Below, one piece after another: positions 7,468 through 28,397 of a DNA stretch of 28,397 nucleotides. Positions within the stretch are counted from its first letter, which is position 1. The number at the start of each line of letters is the position of its first letter. The translations under genes and the position numbers were made by a program. The DNA is from a virus (lineage: Duplodnaviria > Heunggongvirae > Uroviricota > Caudoviricetes). Location of the stretch: the IMG/VR virus record IMGVR_UViG_2663762992_000009; one strand, given 5' to 3'. The notes beneath the pieces are model-generated. The model worked only from the letters and a program-made list of their open reading frames with translations. It searched no databases and was not told the origin of the DNA.

Positions 7468-7543
<76 letters not shown>

Positions 7544-7546
7544 TTT

Positions 7547-7623
7547 TGGTGGCCCTTGCTGGACTTGAACCAGCGACCTGGCGATTATGAGTCGCACGCT
7601 CTGACCAACTGAGCTAAAGGGCC
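7547..7623 (-). tRNA. tRNA with CAU anticodon (Ile2-lysidine type or Met)
   Basis: Full cloverleaf on the minus strand: acceptor GGCCCTT/AAGGGCC, D-arm GCTC/GAGC, anticodon loop CTCATAA, T-arm GCTGG-TTCAAGT-CCAGC, CCA end; closely resembles the E. coli ileX sequence as I recall it. Confidence 0.85.
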
Positions 7624-8963: not shown

Positions 8964-9073
8964 GGAGGTAACGTATAAACGGCAGGTGCTTTAGATCAAG
9001 CTTTTTATCATGTCGGCGAAATGAAAAAGGGCTCACCGAAGTGAGCCCTGAATTACCGCCGTTTTCAATTTGC

Positions 9074-9166
9074 CGCAGTGCCGGGTGCCTCCCGATGGTA
9101 TTAACCGCAACGTCAACAGTGGAAGCGAAACCTGACGATGCCCCTACGCTAGTGGGATTCACTGCA
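9074..9166. repeat. repeat unit C (more diverged copy)
   Basis: 5' end gcagtgccgg and 3' end cgctagtgggattcactgca match units A and B with a few substitutions. Confidence 0.6.
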
Positions 9167-9372
9167 ACGGGGGGAACCTATTACCCGCAGACAGCGGCTG
9201 ACAAGATATTTATTTTGCTGAAATGCCAAAATGTGAATCTGCGCATATGAAATTAAACAGAACTTAAACAATTGCAGATACGAACTTGATAGGTTTATGA
9301 AGAAATTACTACGGTCCTCAGGCTTCCCCCTATGAAGCACTTAAGCCTCTTACCTTTTCCAATTGTGATTTT

Positions 9373-10347: not shown

Positions 10348-10634
10348 ACTAATCCCTCCTCTCTCCAGATTTGTTGCGTACGCATTACGCCTTCGGCATG
10401 CATTAACCGAAGTTCGGTGCGGGTAAAGTCTGTTGTTTTTATCCGGCCATCAATCAGGTCATGACAACAGCTACAGGCAATAGATGCCTGCATATCGTTG
10501 GGTTTGGTTGATGCTCCACAGGTACCGGCCAGACGGTAATGGGCCAGAACCGAGGTTTCAGGGTTATGGTTACAGTATCCGGGAATTCTCACCTGGCACT
10601 GCCGACCTTTAGCTGCTTTACGTAACCCGGACAT
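10344..10634 (-). CDS. YbcO-like (DUF1364) nin-region protein, putative nuclease
   Basis: 96 aa; Cys-rich pattern (CQVRIPGYCNHNPETSVLAHYRL ... IACSCCHD) closely resembles E. coli DLP12 YbcO as I recall it. Confidence 0.75.
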   Translation of the reverse strand: MSGLRKAAKGRQCQVRIPGYCNHNPETSVLAHYRLAGTCGASTKPNDMQASIACSCCHDLIDGRIKTTDFTRTELRLMHAEGVMRTQQIWREEGLV

Positions 10635-11233
10635 CAGGCGAACTCCAGCAACTGCATCGCTACATTTTCAGCTTCCTGTGGTGTTCTGAATTTTCGACAG
10701 AGGATGAAATTCCACAGGACGTTAAAGACATCCTTATAGAATTGCCGGAACGTATCTTCATCCATACGGGAGAAAGAAATAGATTTGGGAATTCTGCGGC
10801 GACAATTATCCGGGAGAACAACTTCATCGAAGTAACCAGCCTGAACCGTCACCCATGCCCGGTATGGCTCGAAAGACTTCAGTAAGGCAACATCCCCAGT
10901 ACGTAACTGCCCTTCTTTCAACAGAAATTCATCCGCTGCGGAGGTTAAAACATCACCGTATTGATGACCGGACATCTCAACAAGATAAGTGACAAAGCGA
11001 TTTATCAGCGAAAGTTCATCTGGTGAAAGCACACCACCGACAGGTGTCCAGTAATCGAAGCCCAGTTGCAGAAGTTTGAAGAAACGCTTATGAAAGGCGT
11101 AGTTGCGGACACGTCTGAAATCAGCGTGTATCCACTCGCCAGTTTTGACTGAATGTACAAAGCCCTCACTCTCCGGTGTTGCCGGGAGCAGGATCCCTGA
11201 TGCGGTCTGTTTGACCAGTTGTAAGTGCGCCAT
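10634..11233 (-). CDS. conserved lambdoid nin-region protein (DUF1367-like, tentative)
   Basis: 199-aa ORF of normal GC, start/stop-coupled to the YbcO-like gene; family assignment is from memory only. Confidence 0.55.
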   Translation of the reverse strand: MAHLQLVKQTASGILLPATPESEGFVHSVKTGEWIHADFRRVRNYAFHKRFFKLLQLGFDYWTPVGGVLSPDELSLINRFVTYLVEMSGHQYGDVLTSAADEFLLKEGQLRTGDVALLKSFEPYRAWVTVQAGYFDEVVLPDNCRRRIPKSISFSRMDEDTFRQFYKDVFNVLWNFILCRKFRTPQEAENVAMQLLEFA

Positions 11234-11415: not shown

Positions 11416-12456
11416 TCATCGAACATTCGGTGATATTGCTATCTTTAGATCACTAGTAAGCATCGCGGCCTGCTTTTCTAAAGCCTCTAACATAAAATCT
11501 GTTTTGTCTTGTATCCTAACGAGTAAATAGAATGGTTCACTACTCGTACAGGTTAAACGTGATGTTGTAAAGTCATCACGGTGAGGTATTAATGCGCGAT
11601 AATTTCCTTCAGCGATAAACATAAAGCGAGCATTAGGATGTTCACTGAGCCACATATACTTATTCCTGCAAAAGAAAGTATCGCGTGTGTCATACTTCAT
11701 GGCAAATCCAAAACCGACTTTTATGATGGATAACGTATGTATACTAAATGCAACATATGAAATGCAGCCAATAAGAAATAATGGGACGAAAACTGACATT
11801 AAATAGTTATTATCATCATCAGTTGGCGTTACTTTCCTTTTCTTTACTTTTGAGGGCATCAATATTAAACAAATAATGCAAACAAGGTAAATGATGCAAT
11901 ACAATATAAAAATAAAAAGTAATGCTACAACTGCCGTCATGAGTTTATTGAATGTAGCATCAAATGGAATGTCAAACAAATTGGAAATTAGCGAGCGTGC
12001 AATATAATATGAAATTAATGATACAATTACCCACACATATTTAATTCCCAGGTTAATTTTTATGGCTATGTTTTTTTCTTCATTATCGAACGATTTTATG
12101 TGAGATGATATTGTGTATGTAATACACAATATCGTCACAAAAGCCAATGTATATGGAATGATGGTATTTATATAACCAATAACGTTAAAGGAAACAATTG
12201 TTAATAAAAACAGAAATACCGACAACAGTGCGGCATCTTGCGTTTTTTTATAATTTTTTCGAAGGCGAACGGCCTGTTGACTGGATGACTTTTTATTCCA
12301 ATTATTTTGTACGATTAATCCGCTGAGAATAATCATACCAAACCAAATAAGAATGGGGTATACAGGATCACTCTGAGGTATGATGACGAGCACTGCCATA
12401 AAAAACAATAAACTGTGAACAATCCCGAGGTGTAAGGAAGAGTATATACTTTTCAT
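11416..12456 (-). CDS. AT-rich polytopic membrane protein with C-terminal soluble domain (cargo; candidate superinfection-exclusion/defence protein)
   Basis: 346-aa ORF, strongly AT-rich; about seven hydrophobic segments in the first ~230 aa, then a ~110-aa hydrophilic tail; AAGG SD upstream of the ATG at 12456; about 180-bp gaps on both sides. Confidence 0.7.
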   Translation of the reverse strand: MKSIYSSLHLGIVHSLLFFMAVLVIIPQSDPVYPILIWFGMIILSGLIVQNNWNKKSSSQQAVRLRKNYKKTQDAALLSVFLFLLTIVSFNVIGYINTIIPYTLAFVTILCITYTISSHIKSFDNEEKNIAIKINLGIKYVWVIVSLISYYIARSLISNLFDIPFDATFNKLMTAVVALLFIFILYCIIYLVCIICLILMPSKVKKRKVTPTDDDNNYLMSVFVPLFLIGCISYVAFSIHTLSIIKVGFGFAMKYDTRDTFFCRNKYMWLSEHPNARFMFIAEGNYRALIPHRDDFTTSRLTCTSSEPFYLLVRIQDKTDFMLEALEKQAAMLTSDLKIAISPNVR

Positions 12457-12603
12457 CGATGACCTTTTTAATAATGGGTTATTCTATTGGAATTAGAAAA
12501 ACCACCAGCAGGCCATTACTGTCAAGCCCGGACGCTGTCTGTTTTATCCGTAGCACACGTACATAAACGCGCCATCCGAACCACGATGGCGCGACAGTAC
12601 ATC

Positions 12604-12774
12604 TTACAGTTGGTCAGACTTTCCTTCAGGGCGTATCAGCTCGTCCCGTGATTCAGGCGTTATTACAATCTGATGACTCAGCAATGGCACGACCACGAAC
12701 TCACCAGAACTGAGTACGTATACAAGATATCTGCCAGGAACTTTCAACATTCTCAACAGTTCATCTGTATTCAT
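12604..12774 (-). CDS. small hypothetical protein (56 aa)
   Basis: ATG at 12774 preceded by GGAG with 8-nt spacing, inside the longer ORF-track frame; lies between the membrane protein and the next small ORF. Confidence 0.3.
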   Translation of the reverse strand: MNTDELLRMLKVPGRYLVYVLSSGEFVVVPLLSHQIVITPESRDELIRPEGKSDQL

Positions 12775-12900
12775 ATTTTTGCTCCGTTGGTTAACAGATT
12801 CCCTTTCGGGAGCATTCCCTTTCATCCCTGTGCACAATCTTTTTAAAACAGTGCCGGTACGCGCATACAGGTTTGTTAGAATGTCTGTTAATAGAGCAAA

Positions 12901-13107
12901 TCAGATATCACTCTCCCCAAGGCTCCTGCATTCAAAGTTCTCCAGTTTCACATGTTCACCGGCAGTACGGCCCGCCTCTTTAGGCTTATAAAAACGCATT
13001 TCGCACTGTTTCTGGGTCAGTCTGGTTTCGGAGTAAAATGACCAGGCCACAGGCGGATTGCCTGCTTTATGGATAGTTGCTGTAATTTTGTATTTTTTCC
13101 CTTTCAT
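12901..13107 (-). CDS. small hypothetical protein (68 aa)
   Basis: ORF-track frame on the same strand as its neighbours; weak SD; no family recognised. Confidence 0.3.
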   Translation of the reverse strand: MKGKKYKITATIHKAGNPPVAWSFYSETRLTQKQCEMRFYKPKEAGRTAGEHVKLENFECRSLGESDI

Positions 13108-13222
13108 ACTTACTGCCGAAAAATGTGTTGATTATTTACACAGATTCGTATCACAAGCAGCCAGGAGTATCCAAGCAGGATATGAAGGTAACCCAGTATG
13201 TTACCTTCACTGTCTGATATCA

Positions 13223-13986: not shown

Positions 13987-14727
13987 TCAGGGCCGGTTGA
14001 CGTTTTTTCGCCAGCTTTCCCAGCCAAAATTTACCCATCGGCCACCGTTCATGGACATTCTGTCCATCACCCGCTGACCTGCCAGCTTAGTCAGTGCATC
14101 ATGGTTCAGGTTGGTCAGCATTCCGACGCTGCGCAGGGATGCGGTCCGGCGATCAACAATCTGGTGCAGGATGACCTGCTCGTTGCGTGTCTCACGCTGC
14201 ACACCAACCTCATCAAGGATCAGCAGGTCCACTCCGCACAGCTCCTTCAAAAATTTTTCACCCGAATTTCCATCATCGTACCCGGCATGAAGCGCACTCA
14301 TCACGTCGGCGACGGTGATAACAATCACACTGCGTCCGGCGTTCATCAGGCGGTTACCTATGGCGGCGGCCAGATGATTTTTGCCGGTACCAGGCTTACC
14401 GCTGAACACAAAATTTGTACAACCGGTATCCAGTTCAGCAGCTATGGATTTGGCCTGGCTGAGCGCATGCTTCTGGCCGTCATTCTGCACCCGGTAATTC
14501 TTGAACGAGCATCTGCGATGCAGTGGCTGAATACCGGCCCGACCGAAGATTTTTTCGGCCCTGGTCTGGCGGTTAAGTCGGTCAATTTCCTCGCAGCGTC
14601 TGCGCCCTTCGGCTAGCTGCCATTCCCGCCACTCCCCCGGCGTCCGGAACGGTGCGGAACTGTTGGCCGACCGTGGCGCCAGTTTCCTGATGCGGGCCAG
14701 AATCCCGGTATCTGCGATGTTTCTCAT
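13987..14727 (-). CDS. DnaC-like helicase loader / replication protein (IstB-like AAA+ ATPase; YdaV-like)
   Basis: 246 aa; Walker A (GKPGTGKNHLAAAIG) and Walker B (LLILDEVG) motifs; follows the DUF1376 replication gene. Confidence 0.85.
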   Translation of the reverse strand: MRNIADTGILARIRKLAPRSANSSAPFRTPGEWREWQLAEGRRRCEEIDRLNRQTRAEKIFGRAGIQPLHRRCSFKNYRVQNDGQKHALSQAKSIAAELDTGCTNFVFSGKPGTGKNHLAAAIGNRLMNAGRSVIVITVADVMSALHAGYDDGNSGEKFLKELCGVDLLILDEVGVQRETRNEQVILHQIVDRRTASLRSVGMLTNLNHDALTKLAGQRVMDRMSMNGGRWVNFGWESWRKNVNRP

Positions 14728-14733
14728 GGCTTG

Positions 14734-15651
14734 TCACCCCCTGAAACCCGGTGGAATGGTTGTGTCCGGTGGCGAAATATCCTGAATCCTGGTCGGGCTG
14801 TCGCGGCCACGATTGCCTCCCCGGTCCTGGTCTTTTGCCAGCCAGCCGGTGATAAATTTCCTGATGCCTCGGGCGGTTTTTCGTCGTCGTCGTTCGCTGA
14901 GCAGCCATCCGCGCTGATTACGCAGTGCCTGCCGGACGTCGACCGCCGGATACAGCGTCTCAAACTCGACAACCATCGATTCGGTCACGGAAAATTCAGA
15001 ACCGTCGTTGAGCGGAAGCCGAATAAACTCAGGGTCATCAGGCGGTGTTGATGGCACACCAGCGCTCAGAGGCCGACGCTCAGGTCCGACATGGGCTGGT
15101 CCGGTACCATCGGGCAAACTCGCACCCTGTGACCCGAAATTTTCATCCAGTTGCGTGGGGCTGATTTTTTCAGCTCCGCGCAAGAGGTTTTGATCTTTTA
15201 GATCTGTTTCTTTATCTTTATCTGGATCTTTATTAGTTGCCTTTGTGTTGGGCTCCTGTTCAAACACAGAACCAACACCTGTTGAACATGTGTTATTTTC
15301 GCTGGCAGATTGTGCTTCCTTCCTGTTCCTTCTTGACTGAACAGATGCTTTTCCTGCTGCAGACTTTTTCGCTAAGGTTTCCCTGACCGAATGAAGATCA
15401 TCTTCAATACGCTTGTGAACCCACTCCGTGCCGTTATCAGTAAAAAATTCTCTCAACGACTCTTCTACGGCTCCCCAACGCTCACTGCTAACCCGGGCAA
15501 TCTTTGCCAGCCTGTTTTTCGGTATAGCCCTTCCGGTCTGCCAGTAATTGAACATCAGCAGTAAATAGGCCCCATGCTCCTCGGTTGAAAGATGCATTGT
15601 GTCAGCCAAGTAATCAGCGATATAAAGCTGCATGTATGGAAGTGCCGCCAT
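14734..15651 (-). CDS. replication initiation protein with N-terminal DUF1376 (YdaU-like) domain
   Basis: N-terminus YMQLYIADYLADTMHLSTEEHGAYLLLMFNYWQ is characteristic of DUF1376; long acidic/disordered middle; directly precedes the DnaC-like gene; GAGG SD upstream. Confidence 0.8.
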   Translation of the reverse strand: MAALPYMQLYIADYLADTMHLSTEEHGAYLLLMFNYWQTGRAIPKNRLAKIARVSSERWGAVEESLREFFTDNGTEWVHKRIEDDLHSVRETLAKKSAAGKASVQSRRNRKEAQSASENNTCSTGVGSVFEQEPNTKATNKDPDKDKETDLKDQNLLRGAEKISPTQLDENFGSQGASLPDGTGPAHVGPERRPLSAGVPSTPPDDPEFIRLPLNDGSEFSVTESMVVEFETLYPAVDVRQALRNQRGWLLSERRRRKTARGIRKFITGWLAKDQDRGGNRGRDSPTRIQDISPPDTTIPPGFRG

Positions 15652-15727: not shown

Positions 15728-15791
15728 GCCGAACCTCCTGCTGGTGCTAGCCTGCTGATTCCCCAACCAACAGAACCACAGGAGGTTCGAC
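15728..15791 (+). promoter_or_regulatory. RBS-sequestering hairpin upstream of the plus-strand small gene
   Basis: GCCGAACCTCCTG (15728-15740) pairs in 12 of 13 positions with CAGGAGGTTCGAC (15779-15791), which contains the GGAGG SD of the gene starting at 15792; 38-nt loop. Confidence 0.45.
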
Positions 15792-16004
15792 ATGTCAGAT
15801 ACAAAACTTAAAAATGGATTAACGCCTGAACAAATGGCACACGATATCGCTATGGTGCTCATCGGGAACCCATCCCATGAATGGCTTTCGGATAATGCGA
15901 CCAAAACTCGTAGCACTGAATTAGCAATGAGCGCTGTAGCAGAAGAAGTCATGAACATGGAAAAACATCTTGCTGCAGCTCTTCATCAGTACACGGAGAA
16001 CTAA
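15792..16004 (+). CDS. small hypothetical protein (70 aa) encoded antisense to the early-right operon
   Basis: ATG with a near-ideal SD (GGAGG, 6-nt spacing) and an intrinsic terminator directly after the stop; preferred over the overlapping minus-strand ORF 15695-15958, which has no such signals. Confidence 0.6.
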   Translation: MSDTKLKNGLTPEQMAHDIAMVLIGNPSHEWLSDNATKTRSTELAMSAVAEEVMNMEKHLAAALHQYTEN

Positions 16005-16277: not shown

Positions 16278-16781
16278 TTACAACAGATGGTCACTGGTCA
16301 TGTCTCTGATACTGCTGGCGGTAACTGCTTCGTAGCGTCTGTATTGCTTGTATGGCTTCATCACACTCCCGTTCAAAATCCGTAACAGGCGCACCAAGAA
16401 GTACCGCATTTGCCACTGCGGTTTTTTTAAAAACTGTGTAAGCAGATACTCGATGCTATGCCCTGCCGTGACCTGCTTATGCAGCTCCGGCGCGTGTATC
16501 CGGATTGCTTCAAGAACTGCGGGGATTAGCGCTGAAAACTTTTCGCGGTGCTCTGTCGTTTCGAGTTTTCGCCATCGCTGAAAAATGTTTATACGATTCC
16601 GGCGCCATGCTTCGTAATCCACCGTTCCGTCATCACGTTCTATACGGTGGACAGCAATATCTGGTCTCACTTGCTGTTCCAGAAAGGCGCGGGTGATCAA
16701 CTGTGTTGCACTTTCCTGACTCATTGCGGGTGTAGCCAGCCAGGATGACAGTGCTTTGTTGGCATCCTCAGGGGTGATCAT
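16278..16781 (-). CDS. YdaT-like protein (CII-analogue regulator / putative toxin family of Rac prophage)
   Basis: 167 aa; segment IFQRWRKLETTEHREKFSALIPAVLEAIRIHAPELHKQV resembles the conserved core of E. coli YdaT as I recall it; immediately downstream of the cro-like gene with an overlapping start; GAGGTG SD. Confidence 0.7.
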   Translation of the reverse strand: MITPEDANKALSSWLATPAMSQESATQLITRAFLEQQVRPDIAVHRIERDDGTVDYEAWRRNRINIFQRWRKLETTEHREKFSALIPAVLEAIRIHAPELHKQVTAGHSIEYLLTQFLKKPQWQMRYFLVRLLRILNGSVMKPYKQYRRYEAVTASSIRDMTSDHLL

Positions 16782-17043
16782 CGTTGTTCACCTCTCTCGC
16801 ATCCTTTAGTGGTAGATTTTGATGGCTAGGCAAAGCATCCGTTGGATTAGGGTAAAGAACTGAGTCGAGCTGATGCGGTGTAACTGCATACCCTACGGCC
16901 TCACAAAAAGGAATAATTCGTCGCGGTGGGAATTTTCCTGTTGTAACCCATAGACTTACGTTTTGCTGACTAGTTTTAAGACGTCGGGCGATCTCGGTCT
17001 GATTAGTGATGCCGAATAGTCGGCTCCTGGTTTTAAATTCCAT
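16768..17043 (-). CDS. Cro/YdaS-like HTH regulator
   Basis: Start at the ATG at 17043 with a GGAGGA SD; HTH segment QTEIARRLKTSQQNVSLWV; divergent from the CI-like repressor across an operator-containing intergenic region. Confidence 0.75.
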   Translation of the reverse strand: MEFKTRSRLFGITNQTEIARRLKTSQQNVSLWVTTGKFPPRRIIPFCEAVGYAVTPHQLDSVLYPNPTDALPSHQNLPLKDAREVNNDDHP

Positions 17044-17061
17044 ATATCCTCCAAATGTCAC

Positions 17062-17140
17062 ACTTGTATAAATACAGCATGAACTTGTATTTTACAAATT
17101 TAAATTTGTGTGACGCTAACAAAATTTACTTGTAAAATAT
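17062..17140. promoter_or_regulatory. right operator/promoter region (OR-like), three ACTTGTA-containing palindromic sites
   Basis: ACTTGTA at 17062, 17083 and 17128; palindromes TTGTA-TTT-TACAA (17085-17097) and TTTAC-TT-GTAAA; located between the divergent cro-like and cI-like starts. Confidence 0.55.
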
Positions 17141-17145
17141 GAGGT

Positions 17146-17580
17146 ATGAAAAAAAACAACGAATCAGCTCAATACGAGACTTCAGCCAGAAGGATCAAAC
17201 AGGTCCTGTATGAATTAGGCTGGAACCAAAGTCGCCTGGCTAAAGAAATTGGGGTTTCAGCTCAGGCGGTACAACAATGGGCAAAAGGTACTTCTCGACC
17301 GAATGGCCCTAATCTAACTCGACTTTCTGAAGTCACAAGCAAACCTGAAGCATGGTTTTTCAGTGATGTCAGCGGGTTATCTGAGAGTCATGCAGTACAT
17401 TTACCAGAAAGTAATGGTTCAGACTTTCTCCCGCTTAGCGATGAAGAGATCAGACTGCTAACTGTCTTCAGGAAATTTCCTTCTGTAGAGAGTAAAAACA
17501 TGCTGTTAGCGTTTGAGATGAGACTTCAGGAGATAAAAGAATACTATTCCAAATACGCTAATCCCAATAAAAACCGATAG
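17146..17580 (+). CDS. CI-like prophage repressor, HTH_XRE type, short form without a LexA-like peptidase S24 domain
   Basis: 144 aa; N-terminal HTH (NQSRLAKEIGVSAQAVQQWAKG); the C-terminal ~60 aa is too short for an S24 domain; divergently arranged to the cro-like gene. Confidence 0.8.
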   Translation: MKKNNESAQYETSARRIKQVLYELGWNQSRLAKEIGVSAQAVQQWAKGTSRPNGPNLTRLSEVTSKPEAWFFSDVSGLSESHAVHLPESNGSDFLPLSDEEIRLLTVFRKFPSVESKNMLLAFEMRLQEIKEYYSKYANPNKNR

Positions 17581-17608
17581 TCTCCTTCTTTCCTCCCCCA
17601 ACAATCAC

Positions 17609-17631
17609 AAGCCTGCTTGAAATGCAGGCTT
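17609..17631 (+). terminator. possible terminator hairpin after the repressor gene
   Basis: AAGCCTGC / GCAGGCTT with a 7-nt loop, followed by a short T tract (TGTT); the U-tail is weak. Confidence 0.3.
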
Positions 17632-17648
17632 GTTACACCTCGCATAAT

Positions 17649-17746
17649 AAAACACTTAAATTTCATACAATTAAAAATTTTTAGTGATTTTCTCACTTTA
17701 AACACTTGTATTTATCAAATCCATTTTGTAGATTGATTGTACAAAT
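17649..17746. promoter_or_regulatory. left operator/promoter region (OL-like)
   Basis: Sites related to the OR repeats: acacttaaatttca (17651-), acacttgtatttatc (17702-), and the palindrome TTGTACAA (17738-17745). Confidence 0.45.
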
Positions 17747-17816: not shown

Positions 17817-18005
17817 GTGGACAAGACTGAACTGAAACACATTATCGCCCTGCTCCTGGAAGATGCAAAACGTCTTCAGCAGGTTGAACCAAATGCAGGC
17901 ACTGAGGCCCGCATATGGTTGGCTAATAAAACACTTAATTCATTCAGAGAGTTAAGCGGTTTTGCAAGAGGGTCAGGTATCTCTACCGAACACCAACTTT
18001 CTTAG
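17817..18005 (+). CDS. small hypothetical protein, first ORF of the early-left operon
   Basis: GTG start with GAGGA 7 nt upstream; 62 aa; overlaps the 3' end of a convergent minus-strand ORF, so one of the two may be spurious. Confidence 0.35.
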   Translation: MDKTELKHIIALLLEDAKRLQQVEPNAGTEARIWLANKTLNSFRELSGFARGSGISTEHQLS

Positions 18006-18171
18006 CTAGCGCCTCCATAATAATAGAATGTCGTTCGCTAAGAATGCCGATTGCCGCCCCGCAAAGTGCACACTGAACGAAGTGAATAATGTGACTGCAA
18101 TTTTTCACTGAGGAATTGGTTTTTAACTCAAAAGAAGTTGATGGGCATTTTGGACAGGTTGTTACAGCCAT
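17983..18171 (-). CDS. small zinc-ribbon protein (CxxC ... CxxC), Ogr/Delta-like architecture
   Basis: ATG at 18171 with a strong SD (GGAGGG, 6-nt spacing); Cys pairs CPKC and CALC separated by about 25 residues. Confidence 0.5.
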   Translation of the reverse strand: MAVTTCPKCPSTSFELKTNSSVKNCSHIIHFVQCALCGAAIGILSERHSIIMEALAKKVGVR

Positions 18172-18383: not shown

Positions 18384-18648
18384 AGTGAAAATCATAACAG
18401 TGCTGTGTGTAGTCTTTGACGGTATCCGTTAACAAAGTTTTCCTGGCTGATACCGTCCTTTTTCAGAATGAATTTTATAGTGTGGTGAATGCGGCTCAGC
18501 GCACGTGACACAGTTAAAAACATGTCAGTCCTTCATCTGTTGATGGGTGGGAATGTTCGTCGGCAGTAATGGTTAGCTGTTTACTGTCACCGGGAGGCAC
18601 CCGGCACCACACTCCAAAATTCATTGTGTTACCAGAATGGAGACAACT

Positions 18649-25949: not shown

Positions 25950-27197
25950 ATGGCTGCTTTACCAACAGGTGTAGAAATCAGAGGTAGTAGCATCTGTATC
26001 TGGTTTATGTACAGAGGAAAACGTTGCCGCGAAACTCTCAGAGGATGGAGCATAACACCTGCTAATATCAGAAAAGCAGGTAATCTGCGCTCAATTATCG
26101 TCAGTGAAATCAACATGGGCGAGTTCGACTACCAGACTCGCTTCCCATCCTCCAAAAAAGCAATAAAAATTGTCACTACGGTTTCAGTCAGAACTCTAGG
26201 CGAACTCTGTGATCTGTGGCTGTCGATAAAAGAGACTGAACTGGCGGCTAACACCTTGCGCAAAACCAGCTCGCAGCTCGACACGCTGAAATTCATTATC
26301 AATAAAAACACGCCACTTTCGACGATTCGCCACAGCGACATTCTGAACTACCGCAACGAGCTGCTAAACGGAGAGACAAATTACCGAAACGCCACGAGAG
26401 GAAATAAAACCGGCCGTACCGCGCGCACGGTTGATAATTACATTTCCCTGCTCTGCTCCCTGCTCCGTTTTGCGCAGCACTCAGGGTTTATTAAGCACAA
26501 ACCTTTTGAGGGGGTTCGGAAGCTGCAAAAAGCCCGGATCAAACCGGACCCGCTCACAAAGCAGGAGTTTGCACAGTTGATGGAAGCAGAATACGGCCAG
26601 AGCCAGAATCTGTGGAAATTTGCAGTATATACGGGCCTTCGTCATGGTGAACTTGCTGCGCTGGCGTGGGAGGATGTGGATCTCGAGGCGGGAACAGTCA
26701 GCGTGTGCCGTAATCTGACCATTATCGGTACCTTCGGGCCGCCAAAGACAGATGCAGGCTACCGGACAATAAAGCTGCTGGAACCTGCGTTGGAAGCGTT
26801 GAAAGCACAGCGTGAACTTACCGCCCTCCAGCCAAAGTCAAAAATCGTTTTTAACCACCGTGAATATGGAAGGACAGAAACCCAGCGCGTGCACTTTGTT
26901 TTCATGCCAAGGATGCGTAAAGGCGAGCAAAAACCGTATTACAGCGTATCGAGCATCGGGCACCGTTGGAACGCTGCCGTAAAACGTGCTGGCATTCGTC
27001 GTCGGAATCCATATCACACACGGCATACTTTCGCCTGCTGGTTGTTATCCGCCGGTGCAAACCCGTCGTTTATCGCAAGTCAGATGGGACATGAAAATGC
27101 ACAAATGGTTTATGAAGTATATGCAACATGGATGGATGATATGAACAAAGATCAAATTGAACTAATTAATAGAAACTTACTAAACTCTTTATTTTAA
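25950..27197 (+). CDS. int: tyrosine site-specific integrase (lambda/Rac IntR-like)
   Basis: 415 aa; N-terminal arm-binding-like region (LPTGVEIRGSSICIWFMYRGKRCRETL); catalytic signature GLRHGELAAL ... HTRHTFACWLLSAGANPSFIASQMGH ... VY (R, H-x-x-R, Y). Confidence 0.9.
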   Translation: MAALPTGVEIRGSSICIWFMYRGKRCRETLRGWSITPANIRKAGNLRSIIVSEINMGEFDYQTRFPSSKKAIKIVTTVSVRTLGELCDLWLSIKETELAANTLRKTSSQLDTLKFIINKNTPLSTIRHSDILNYRNELLNGETNYRNATRGNKTGRTARTVDNYISLLCSLLRFAQHSGFIKHKPFEGVRKLQKARIKPDPLTKQEFAQLMEAEYGQSQNLWKFAVYTGLRHGELAALAWEDVDLEAGTVSVCRNLTIIGTFGPPKTDAGYRTIKLLEPALEALKAQRELTALQPKSKIVFNHREYGRTETQRVHFVFMPRMRKGEQKPYYSVSSIGHRWNAAVKRAGIRRRNPYHTRHTFACWLLSAGANPSFIASQMGHENAQMVYEVYATWMDDMNKDQIELINRNLLNSLF

Positions 27198-28397
27198 GAA
27201 AGATGATATAAACATCGTACAATTCAAAATCAGATTACTGAATGATAATGCCGACACTAAACCGAATATTTTATATAACGTGTTACATTGAGAATCCAAT
27301 GCATTCTCTTTTTTATTAAGCTCCGTCAACTCTAACTTTTTCAACTCATCACGCATTGTCCTAAAAAGAACACTATACTCTGACTGACATTCTTGCACCA
27401 ATACTTTTTGATAATTTGTAAGATAATATATGGTGAACGTCGTATATAAAGAAAGAACTATAGCTGCCATATTTAAAACCCACGAGTTTACATTATCAAA
27501 TTTCCCCATGGCAGCAAAACTGATTATTCCAGATATAGGAATGGCAAGTGACCTTGTAAGGGTGTCATACATTATGGAATTGAGTTTAGATAAATAATCC
27601 CTGAATTTCTCTTGGTACTCCTTTCTTATTTTTTCAAAACTAAACCCGACCGTAAACGAAAGGTAATTTTCTTGGAAAATCCGTGAGAACAATGTAAAGT
27701 CGGTTAAAATTTTTGAAAGTCGATCTTCTTTCTTTACTCTCCATAAAAAAGAGAACAATACGTTCTGTAGAATGTGTTTTTTCTCCTGTTCATGCAAGAG
27801 GTCAGAGAATAATTTTTCAAAACTTGAAAACCCATCAAATTCGTAAGCTAAATCTTCAAATTTATAGTTAAGATCTAAATACAATTTATTTTTTGATAAA
27901 AACAACAACTCTCTCCCGTTCTCCCCATCAGAACAATCTGTAAGTATTTTCCAAATTTTCGAAACTTGAAAATACCGTAATATTTCATTCCGGTTATAAT
28001 CATCAGGACAAATTGTGCATTTTCCTTCATTCGTAGTTGATGAAATTAAAATAAACCGATTACCAGCAAGAGGTCTATTTGCAACCAGCTCTTTTTCATC
28101 ATAAAAAACTTCGATCTGCCCTCTTAACCTGTCAAGGTTCATGCTGACAATAAAATATTTTACCCCTCCACTTTGCAGCATTGAGGGAGAATCGGACCAA
28201 GCGTGAAAATTACGTTTATAAATTTTAGAATTAAGTTCTACTTCATATTGAGGTTCCAGTAGGTATTGCTCACTACGTTTAAATGCGAGATCAAATACTT
28301 CCTGCTCAAATTGAAGTTCTAAAGTAAGAAAGCCATTATCGTATCCCATTATTTTGGATTTATTTAATATCTCCTTTATATTTTCAAAGCTTACCAT
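27189..28397 (-). CDS. AT-rich hypothetical protein with C-terminal TM helices, convergent with int (N-terminus at or beyond window edge)
   Basis: 402-codon ORF, strongly AT-rich; 3' end overlaps the int stop by 9 nt; C-terminal hydrophobic segments (AIPISGIISFAAMG, WVLNMAAIVLSLYTTFTIYYL, IFGLVSALSFSNLIL); ORF runs to the last base of the window. Confidence 0.7.
   Translation of the reverse strand: MVSFENIKEILNKSKIMGYDNGFLTLELQFEQEVFDLAFKRSEQYLLEPQYEVELNSKIYKRNFHAWSDSPSMLQSGGVKYFIVSMNLDRLRGQIEVFYDEKELVANRPLAGNRFILISSTTNEGKCTICPDDYNRNEILRYFQVSKIWKILTDCSDGENGRELLFLSKNKLYLDLNYKFEDLAYEFDGFSSFEKLFSDLLHEQEKKHILQNVLFSFLWRVKKEDRLSKILTDFTLFSRIFQENYLSFTVGFSFEKIRKEYQEKFRDYLSKLNSIMYDTLTRSLAIPISGIISFAAMGKFDNVNSWVLNMAAIVLSLYTTFTIYYLTNYQKVLVQECQSEYSVLFRTMRDELKKLELTELNKKENALDSQCNTLYKIFGLVSALSFSNLILNCTMFISSFLK

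Follow-up and report, generated by a model that had tools for sequence, protein, structure and literature searches.

A short lambdoid prophage repressor without a self-cleavage domain and a 56-residue candidate antirepressor

Background

The stretch of DNA analysed here, 28,397 nt from IMG/VR record IMGVR_UViG_2663762992_000009 (the window), is a lambdoid prophage with the minus strand as its lytic strand. Our subjects are its immunity repressor, a CI-type protein of 144 amino acids (aa) encoded by the open reading frame (ORF) at 17146–17580 (+), and a candidate for its cognate antirepressor, the 56-aa product of an unannotated gene, ORF56, at 12604–12774 (−), 4.5 kb from the repressor. The prophage to which this repressor belongs is apparently a complete Salmonella prophage, and exact copies of the repressor were found in many Salmonella assemblies. 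Leading away from the repressor, the minus strand carries cro-like, cII/YdaT-like, DUF1376, DnaC-like, DUF1627 and DUF1187 genes, ORF56 and a membrane ORF, and continues with DUF1367, YbcO, a Q-like antiterminator, a DoxX moron, tRNAs, holin/endolysin/Rz, HNH, TerS, TerL and a partial portal gene. On the plus strand, to the right of the repressor, lie small ORFs, a YdaE-like gene, RecE, RecT and the integrase.

Non-cleavable repressors are common in enterobacterial prophages. To our knowledge, few antirepressors have been identified so far (GfoA/GftA/FsoA, Rem, Tum, and AntC), and the inducer of most such prophages is not known. An earlier sequence-only reading of the window had proposed that the repressor is too short to cleave itself, that it is of the Gifsy type and depends on an antirepressor, and that one of the small ORFs in the window might fill that role.

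Results

The repressor ORF spans exactly 17146–17580 with its stop codon included and begins with ATG. Its best Pfam match is HTH_3 (residues 18–71, E = 3.5e-10), all of its Pfam matches are of the helix-turn-helix (HTH) type, and PHROGs groups it with transcriptional repressors, also by way of the N-terminal HTH part. The Pfam search gave no match to Peptidase_S24, even at E ≤ 1, and the translation contains no Ala-Gly or Cys-Gly dipeptide and no cysteine. An AlphaFold2 model, built from a 6-sequence alignment of homologues (mean predicted local distance difference test, pLDDT, 66.5), has helices at residues 3–72, a disordered stretch at 75–95, and a helical hairpin formed by 99–109 and 113–138. 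The model is all-helical with no beta strands, and therefore holds no S24 fold. Both a Foldseek search of the PDB (P22 C2 and 434 DNA-binding domains) and a PDB sequence search matched the N-terminal domain only. The protein can be divided into an N-terminal HTH (~15–72), the disordered linker, and a C-terminal two-helix tail (99–138) with the motif LSxEExxLLxxFRxFPxxExxNMLLAFEMRLQExxxYY, which we call the AFEMR tail. An S24 domain is not present in the repressor, nor is there room for one in the ~70 residues that remain after the HTH; with neither the S24 beta-fold nor an Ala-Gly site, the protein stands outside the self-cleaving class of LexA and lambda CI. The Pfam search, the model, and the dipeptide check agree with the sequence-only reading of a short repressor with an N-terminal HTH and no space for S24, and a cryptic S24-like Ala-Gly/Ser-Lys module was looked for by the same three means and did not appear.

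The repressor is related to those of the Gifsy prophages beyond the HTH. It is 36.8% identical to GtgR of Gifsy-2 over 117 aa (GtgR residues 12–122, E = 2e-18), an alignment that covers the HTH and the C-terminal part, and tblastn with the repressor gave matches in both Gifsy-1 and Gifsy-2. Identity to CI of Klebsiella phage ST16-OXA48phi5.1 is 38.8%, and a word-indexed protein search found six relatives. The NCBIfam DicA model (NF007257) aligned to residues 11–134 with 48.7 bits (E = 6e-13) against a cut-off of 101; the repressor is a relative of DicA and not a member of the DicA subfamily. With the Gifsy class it shares a length of ~135–150 aa, a CI-like HTH, the lack of S24 and Ala-Gly, and homology past the HTH. 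According to Lemire, Figueroa-Bossi & Bossi (2011, PMC3121763), GfoR and GtgR are not cleaved; two small proteins, GfoA and GftA, inactivate them, and these are expressed under LexA control from an operon (dinI-gftA-irsA) located 1.3 kb downstream of the replication genes. The Gifsy analogy of the sequence-only reading holds for the repressor itself and fails in one part: the LexA-controlled dinI-gftA operon, expected downstream of the replication genes, is missing from the window. Dependence on an antirepressor is supported because of homology to the Gifsy repressors, not merely because of size. Lacking an S24 domain, the repressor cannot cleave itself, so that a protein partner must inactivate it, as with GfoR/GtgR and DicA; we consider it highly probable that it is non-cleavable and controlled by such a partner.

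The region around the gene has the anatomy expected of an immunity repressor with right and left operators (OR and OL). The gap of 84 bp between repressor and cro holds three ACTTGTAT-type repeats (17060–17144), at 17060–17076, 17083–17099, and 17128–17144, the second of which is near-palindromic (ACTTGTATTTTACAAAT). A fourth operator-like copy, AAACACTTGTATTTATCAAAT, lies on the early-left promoter (PL) side at 17700–17720, 120–140 bp past the repressor stop, and has ACACTTGTAT in common with the OR repeats. The repeats, which are putative operators, overlap a probable minus-strand early-right promoter (PR; TTGTAA-17 nt-TATTTA, ~17097–17069, hexamers picked by eye) and a plus-strand promoter for the repressor resembling PRM, predicted by a promoter scan at 17110–17138. 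Just past the repressor gene, a perfect 10-bp hairpin (ACAAGCCTGC/GCAGGCTTGT, 17607–17633) with no T run is a possible transcript end or processing site. Divergent from the repressor is the cro-like gene (16768–17061, −), of the YdaS HTH type and 40% identical to Gifsy-2 Cro, followed by the CII-like/YdaT-type gene (16278–16781, −), recognised by Pfam and PHROGs. No close relative of this immunity region was found among deposited phages or complete E. coli genomes.

If the window followed the Gifsy layout, its inducer module would fall between 13222 and 11234. We scanned the window for LexA boxes with an approximate position-specific scoring matrix from 32 E. coli SOS boxes. The best site, located upstream of terS, scored 12.8 bits with the base composition of the window and 14.1 bits with a uniform background. 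Random first-order Markov windows gave a mean best score of 10.9 bits with a 95th percentile of 15.5, while the dinI box of Gifsy-2 reached 23.8; no LexA box above chance was therefore present in the window, as the sequence-only reading had judged by eye. Its remark that no obvious antirepressor was visible is likewise true for the known families: homologues of DinI, GftA, its Klebsiella counterpart, Fels-1 FsoA, and Rem were absent from all six-frame ORFs of at least 25 aa in the window (tblastn, phmmer, and a three-sequence hidden Markov model).

The site upstream of terS belongs to a 36-nt near-palindrome between HNH and terS (2915–2950; TACTGCATTAAATCACAT and ATGTATTTTAATACAGTA), which can be read as two overlapping imperfect LexA-like boxes of 14.1 and 9.0 bits. 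It is kept in all contigs with the same TerL and is probably part of the cos/packaging region. As an SOS site this palindrome, TACTGTATTAAAATACATAT, was rejected, being in the random range and probably part of the cos region.

Three contigs with the same TerL or tail genes (L011, L015, and L018), which cover the head genes through the tail-tip region plus ~2.6 kb, contained no LexA box above 14 bits. L017 has a box of 24 bits, which stands ahead of a DNA methyltransferase in another, mosaic phage and has no bearing here. No box above 12 bits was found near the GftA-like gene of Klebsiella phage ST16-OXA48phi5.1 (L009) or near rem of Qin (L010) in the 10–22 kb examined, and control of small antirepressors independent of LexA may therefore be common.

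ORF56 (MNTDELLRMLKVPGRYLVYVLSSGEFVVVPLLSHQIVITPESRDELIRPEGKSDQL; phrog_34610) has a GGAG 7 nt before its ATG and is followed directly by a hairpin resembling an intrinsic terminator (12568–12593, −; 9 pairs, 7 of them G-C, with a TTTAT tail). From the inferred PR to the nin region, the lytic strand has no other strong terminator. The word-indexed search returned four relatives of ORF56, and the family as used here came from an exhaustive profile-free search; its members are small, at 55–64 aa. The family genes of L101, L103, and L104 belong to the nin regions of lambdoid prophages whose cro/cII genes are of the YdaS/YdaT type, and the two of these loci that reach the immunity region (L103 and L104) encode short repressors of 119 and 134 aa. 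In L101, L103, and L192, the homologue stands directly upstream of the DUF1367/NinB gene, the slot that is occupied by gftA in Gifsy-2 and by the GftA-like gene in Klebsiella phage ST16-OXA48phi5.1. Gifsy-2, a Klebsiella phage, and many viral contigs all have DUF1367 as the landmark directly downstream of this antirepressor slot, and among 80 control contigs Rem-like (15) and GftA-like (4) genes were found immediately upstream of DUF1367. In the window, the DUF1367 gene (10634–11233, −), an irsA homologue 50% identical to Gifsy-2 STM1020, is parted from ORF56 by a low-GC moron. Sequence comparison of ORF56 with Rem gave no more than a suggestive likeness (BLASTP E = 0.007 over 20 aa; hhalign probability 38%, P = 3e-4, across 21 N-terminal columns).

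Upstream of the family starts, by 45–70 nt, we found a conserved leader consisting of GCGCGCAGGGAGAAAAGGGAC and a GC-rich hairpin whose stem sequence is lineage-specific. It was seen in L099, L104, L109, L111, L115, L118, L132, and others, and is retained whatever gene lies upstream; the window has a divergent copy, CACAGGGATGAAAGGGAATGCTCCCGAAAGGGA, within the ORF56 leader (12775–12850, −). The leader matched no Rfam family, and RNAalifold gave it weak support (−2 kcal/mol, 3 pairs).

The presence of ORF56 follows the tail of the repressor. The repressors of L103, L104, and Cronobacter prophages vary in their HTH domains and share the AFEMR tail of the window repressor. We compared all 43 IMG/VR loci that encode an AFEMR tail with 80 control IMG/VR loci anchored on DUF1367. 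The ORF56 family was present in 34 of the 43, always on the lytic strand, and in 31 of the 35 that have at least 9 kb of upstream sequence; it was present in one of the 80 controls, the sole control with a strong AFEMR tail. Fisher's test on 35/9 versus 0/79 gives p = 1e-22, a value that ignores the relatedness of the loci and is inflated because many of them are related. At least three unrelated HTH types carry an AFEMR tail together with an ORF56 partner (36 distinct combinations), and pairwise identity of ORF56 correlated more closely with that of the tail (Spearman 0.82) than with that of the HTH domain (0.52). Other tail classes in the controls had other partners: GtgR/KpCI tails occurred with GftA-like genes in 3/3 cases and strong DicA tails with Rem-like genes in 2/3.

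In relatives, the gene is commonly wired to the SOS response. Of 39 loci, 26 have a consensus LexA box (24.6–28.3 bits) followed by a UmuD-like gene and, as second gene, the ORF56 homologue. The UmuD-like gene (106 aa, phrog_3469) is found in L099 (3081–3439, −) and 25 further loci, in each of them ahead of the homologue, and is absent from all 80 controls. In the Cronobacter prophages, whose repressor (P0136) is 70% identical to that of the window, the homologue has 55 aa and comes second, after a perfect LexA box, AACTGTATATTTATACAGTA (27.6 bits), and the 106-aa UmuD-like gene. These prophages (L098–L100, 3864–4702, −) also have a pair of genes in the nin region, for an HTH protein (119 aa) and a weakly Peptidase_M78-like protein (147–158 aa), in an ImmR/ImmA-like arrangement. 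The ORF56 homologue of L101 and L102 has a divergent HTH gene beside it, much as in the transcription factor–small ORF (TF-smORF) modules (cf. PMC10432266).

In the window, a DUF1187 gene (12901–13107, −; 68 aa, family match) takes the place of the LexA box and the UmuD-like gene. The only LexA-like remnants seen were two: ACCTGTATGCGCGTACCGGC at 12853–12872, decayed to 1.3 bits, and ATCTGTGTAAATAATCAACA at 13126–13145, with 8.0–8.9 bits depending on the background used. The wiring of the window prophage looks SOS-blind, as judged from sequence.

The remaining genes are those of a lambdoid prophage with some cargo. The replication genes are of the DUF1376 (14734–15651, −) and DnaC-like (13987–14727, −) types. 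The moron inserted between the ORF56 terminator and the DUF1367 gene is a multi-pass membrane ORF of 346 aa (11416–12456, −; GC 28–37%), which is preceded by a promoter-like TTGACA and has no family match in Pfam, PHROG, or NCBIfam; relatives carry other cargo at this spot, e.g. ORFs of 167–206 aa. A 70-aa ORF (15792–16004, +) with a promoter-like site at 15787–15815 lies between the replication genes and the cII-like gene, antisense to the early-right operon; it is conserved and was called as a gene in all related loci. Facing the PL transcript are a 62-aa Cys-rich zinc-ribbon ORF with a weak Lar-like match (17983–18171, −), which overlaps the end of a plus-strand 62-aa ORF (17817–18005), and a 43-aa ORF (18392–18523, −), both of which were called in L003. 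This cassette stands where L006 and L007 have an Ash/Rha gene. Genes of the Ash+pRha type, and those of the ORF6N type, are often annotated as antirepressor-like.

In the late region, a match to the Rfam small RNA STnc100 (9018–9195, −; 66 bits, above the gathering score) lies within a 1.36-kb ORF-free leader of the late operon, between the Q-like antiterminator and the DoxX moron. Two tRNA genes (7479–7623, −) are located just upstream of the lysis cassette, the second being a partial match (model positions 8–63). At the right edge, a 402-aa ORF (27189–28397, −) overlaps the integrase gene at that gene's end and is cut off by the window boundary; its match to the NCBIfam anti-phage model DS1_2 is weak (50.8 bits against a cut-off of 315), and it may be a border defence gene. 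At the left edge, the portal gene is partial (1–737), and many assemblies with the same TerL (L012–L014) likewise stop 600–850 bp into it. The portal region may be repeated in these genomes, perhaps through a second related prophage.

Discussion

We propose, at a probability of roughly 60%, that ORF56 is the partner of the repressor and acts on its C-terminal tail, by analogy with SinI and SinR. The suggestion in the sequence-only reading that a small ORF of the window may be the inducer has thereby gained a strong comparative-genomic candidate. The repressor HTH would bind the ACTTGTAT-type operators that overlap the early-right promoter, together with the early-left site, and the short helical tail probably mediates oligomerisation. 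The product of ORF56 would bind the conserved tail in the SinI/SinR manner, upon which the repressor would leave the DNA. With no promoter predicted before it and the sole strong terminator directly after it, ORF56 would, we infer, be expressed as the last gene of the early-right transcript ahead of that terminator. It would then serve mainly as a positive-feedback or commitment device, reinforcing a derepression already begun rather than starting it. Candidates for the primary trigger are an unrecognised promoter, the antirepressor of a co-resident phage acting in trans, or stochastic switching.

Several observations weigh against this proposal. ORF56 has no significant similarity to validated antirepressors (hhalign against GftA gave nothing, and phrog_340 and phrog_4847 gave no matches), and the annotated function of phrog_34610 is unknown. 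In the window, no consensus promoter was predicted upstream of either DUF1187 or ORF56, and neither a LexA box nor an adjacent regulator could be recognised for ORF56, which alone therefore cannot explain how induction starts. Four tail-bearing contigs with full flanks do not have the ORF56 family, and the repressor model is of only moderate confidence (pLDDT 66). Finally, the counts include many close relatives, and both genes could simply ride on one phage backbone.

A different account places the real inducer outside the window, either at the tail-fibre end or in a LexA-controlled co-resident prophage acting in trans, and makes ORF56 an unrelated gene of the nin region. We regard this as unlikely. 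In its favour, Gifsy and Fels-1 provide documented cases of antirepressors acting in trans, the window lacks a LexA box, and the many assemblies that end inside the portal gene suggest a second related prophage. Some relatives also offer other candidates: among those with an identical repressor, L006 and L007 (10978–11829) have a 283-aa Ash+pRha gene just downstream of it, and L002–L004, L006, and L007 (~1693–2382) have an ORF6N gene of 185–187 aa between DoxX and Q. Neither gene type is present in the window, however, and no box above 14 bits was found in L011, L015, and L018 from the head genes to the tail-tip gene region. An outside inducer also leaves unexplained both the co-occurrence of ORF56 with one specific tail and the LexA/UmuD-like wiring of the relatives.

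Somewhat less likely still is that the prophage has no dedicated antirepressor and is induced spontaneously or by stress, through a bistable switch of repressor and Cro, or through instability or host proteolysis of the repressor. DicA can be derepressed independently of Rem, either spontaneously or by urea or heat (Ragunathan et al., PMC10448788), and both the missing SOS input of the window and the long disordered linker of the repressor are compatible with such a route. Against it, antirepressors are known for all characterised members of the class, and a tail–partner pairing that is kept across swapped DNA-binding domains argues for a control point between proteins. A cryptic self-cleavage module, or cleavage by a partner protease of the ImmA/IrrE type, is very improbable despite the HTH/M78-like pair of the Cronobacter prophages, as the repressor has no S24 match, beta structure, or Ala-Gly site and only ~70 residues after the HTH, and no M78 gene was found in the window.

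If ORF56 is the partner, a broader reading suggests itself, which we hold tentatively and with less confidence than the pairing itself. Short enterobacterial prophage repressors would combine two interchangeable modules, with the DNA-binding domain setting immunity and the tail choosing the antirepressor (GtgR-GftA, DicA-Rem, or AFEMR-ORF56); the input to the antirepressor would be swappable as well, and the window prophage would be an SOS-blind variant. That input may be a LexA box with a UmuD-like gene, a divergent transcription factor, or nothing. In the window, the antirepressor may be made only from the early-right transcript, giving a switch that reinforces itself and depends on a further trigger or on a co-resident phage. 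Having no LexA control, the prophage is predicted not to respond to DNA-damaging antibiotics as Gifsy phages do. A rule leading from tail to antirepressor family, if true, would let inducers be found by sequence and would predict which co-resident prophages cross-induce each other, which bears on the spread of Salmonella virulence genes and on killing by antibiotic-triggered prophage induction. The open-access papers searched gave no mention of the ORF56 family as a third partner family, of the match of tail to partner, or of this lineage's loss of LexA control; the partner family and the SOS-blind wiring look undescribed.

Comparison with known systems

A mechanistic likeness exists to SinR-SinI of Bacillus subtilis (PDB 1b0n), in which an HTH and a short C-terminal helical oligomerisation element are bound by a small antagonist. 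SinR was among the structural matches to the repressor model, but that match was driven by the HTH domain. There is no sequence relation, SinR-SinI is a chromosomal biofilm regulator, and the likeness is one of mechanism only.

Tum of coliphage 186 and AntC of N15 are LexA-controlled small antirepressors that act on non-cleavable repressors, and Tum is fused to a DinI-like half. This fusion parallels the operon of a UmuD-like gene and ORF56 in the relatives, although the sequences and phage types are unrelated and the window has no LexA control.

The TF-smORF modules of linear plasmid-like and other prophages (Silpe et al. 2023, PMC10432266) are alike in using small, family-less inactivators of repressors. 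Their small proteins inactivate a phage repressor without proteolysis and independently of SOS (PMC10432266). They differ in that their repressors are mostly cleavable, with a second SOS pathway (PMC10432266), and ORF56 in the window has no adjoining divergent transcription factor of the kind that marks them.

DicA of the Qin prophage in E. coli K-12 is relieved by Rem, and the signal that induces Rem is not known (Ragunathan et al. 2023, PMC10448788). The repressor aligns to the DicA model over nearly its full length, and rem, like ORF56, has no LexA box. In Qin, rem adjoins hokD in the nin region; likewise, ORF56-family genes follow hok in L101 and L104. The N-terminal resemblance of Rem to ORF56 is weak, Rem is longer (83 aa against 56 aa), and ORF56 is not a detectable member of the Rem family.

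The Gifsy-1, -2, and -3 systems (GfoR/GtgR/GfhR with GfoA/GftA/GfhA) likewise have a short HTH repressor (136–144 aa) without S24, with recET to the left, cro, cII, and replication genes to the right, and an irsA/DUF1367 homologue downstream of the antirepressor slot. The window differs in having no dinI, no gftA/gfoA homologue, and no LexA box, in a candidate partner from another family of small proteins, and in the second tail helix of its repressor (NMLLAFEMRLQE..YY), which departs from the Gifsy tail. The repressor itself is an ordinary member of the class described in 2011, and in the relatives of the window prophage the order of LexA box, UmuD-like gene, and ORF56 mirrors the Gifsy order of LexA box, dinI, and gftA.

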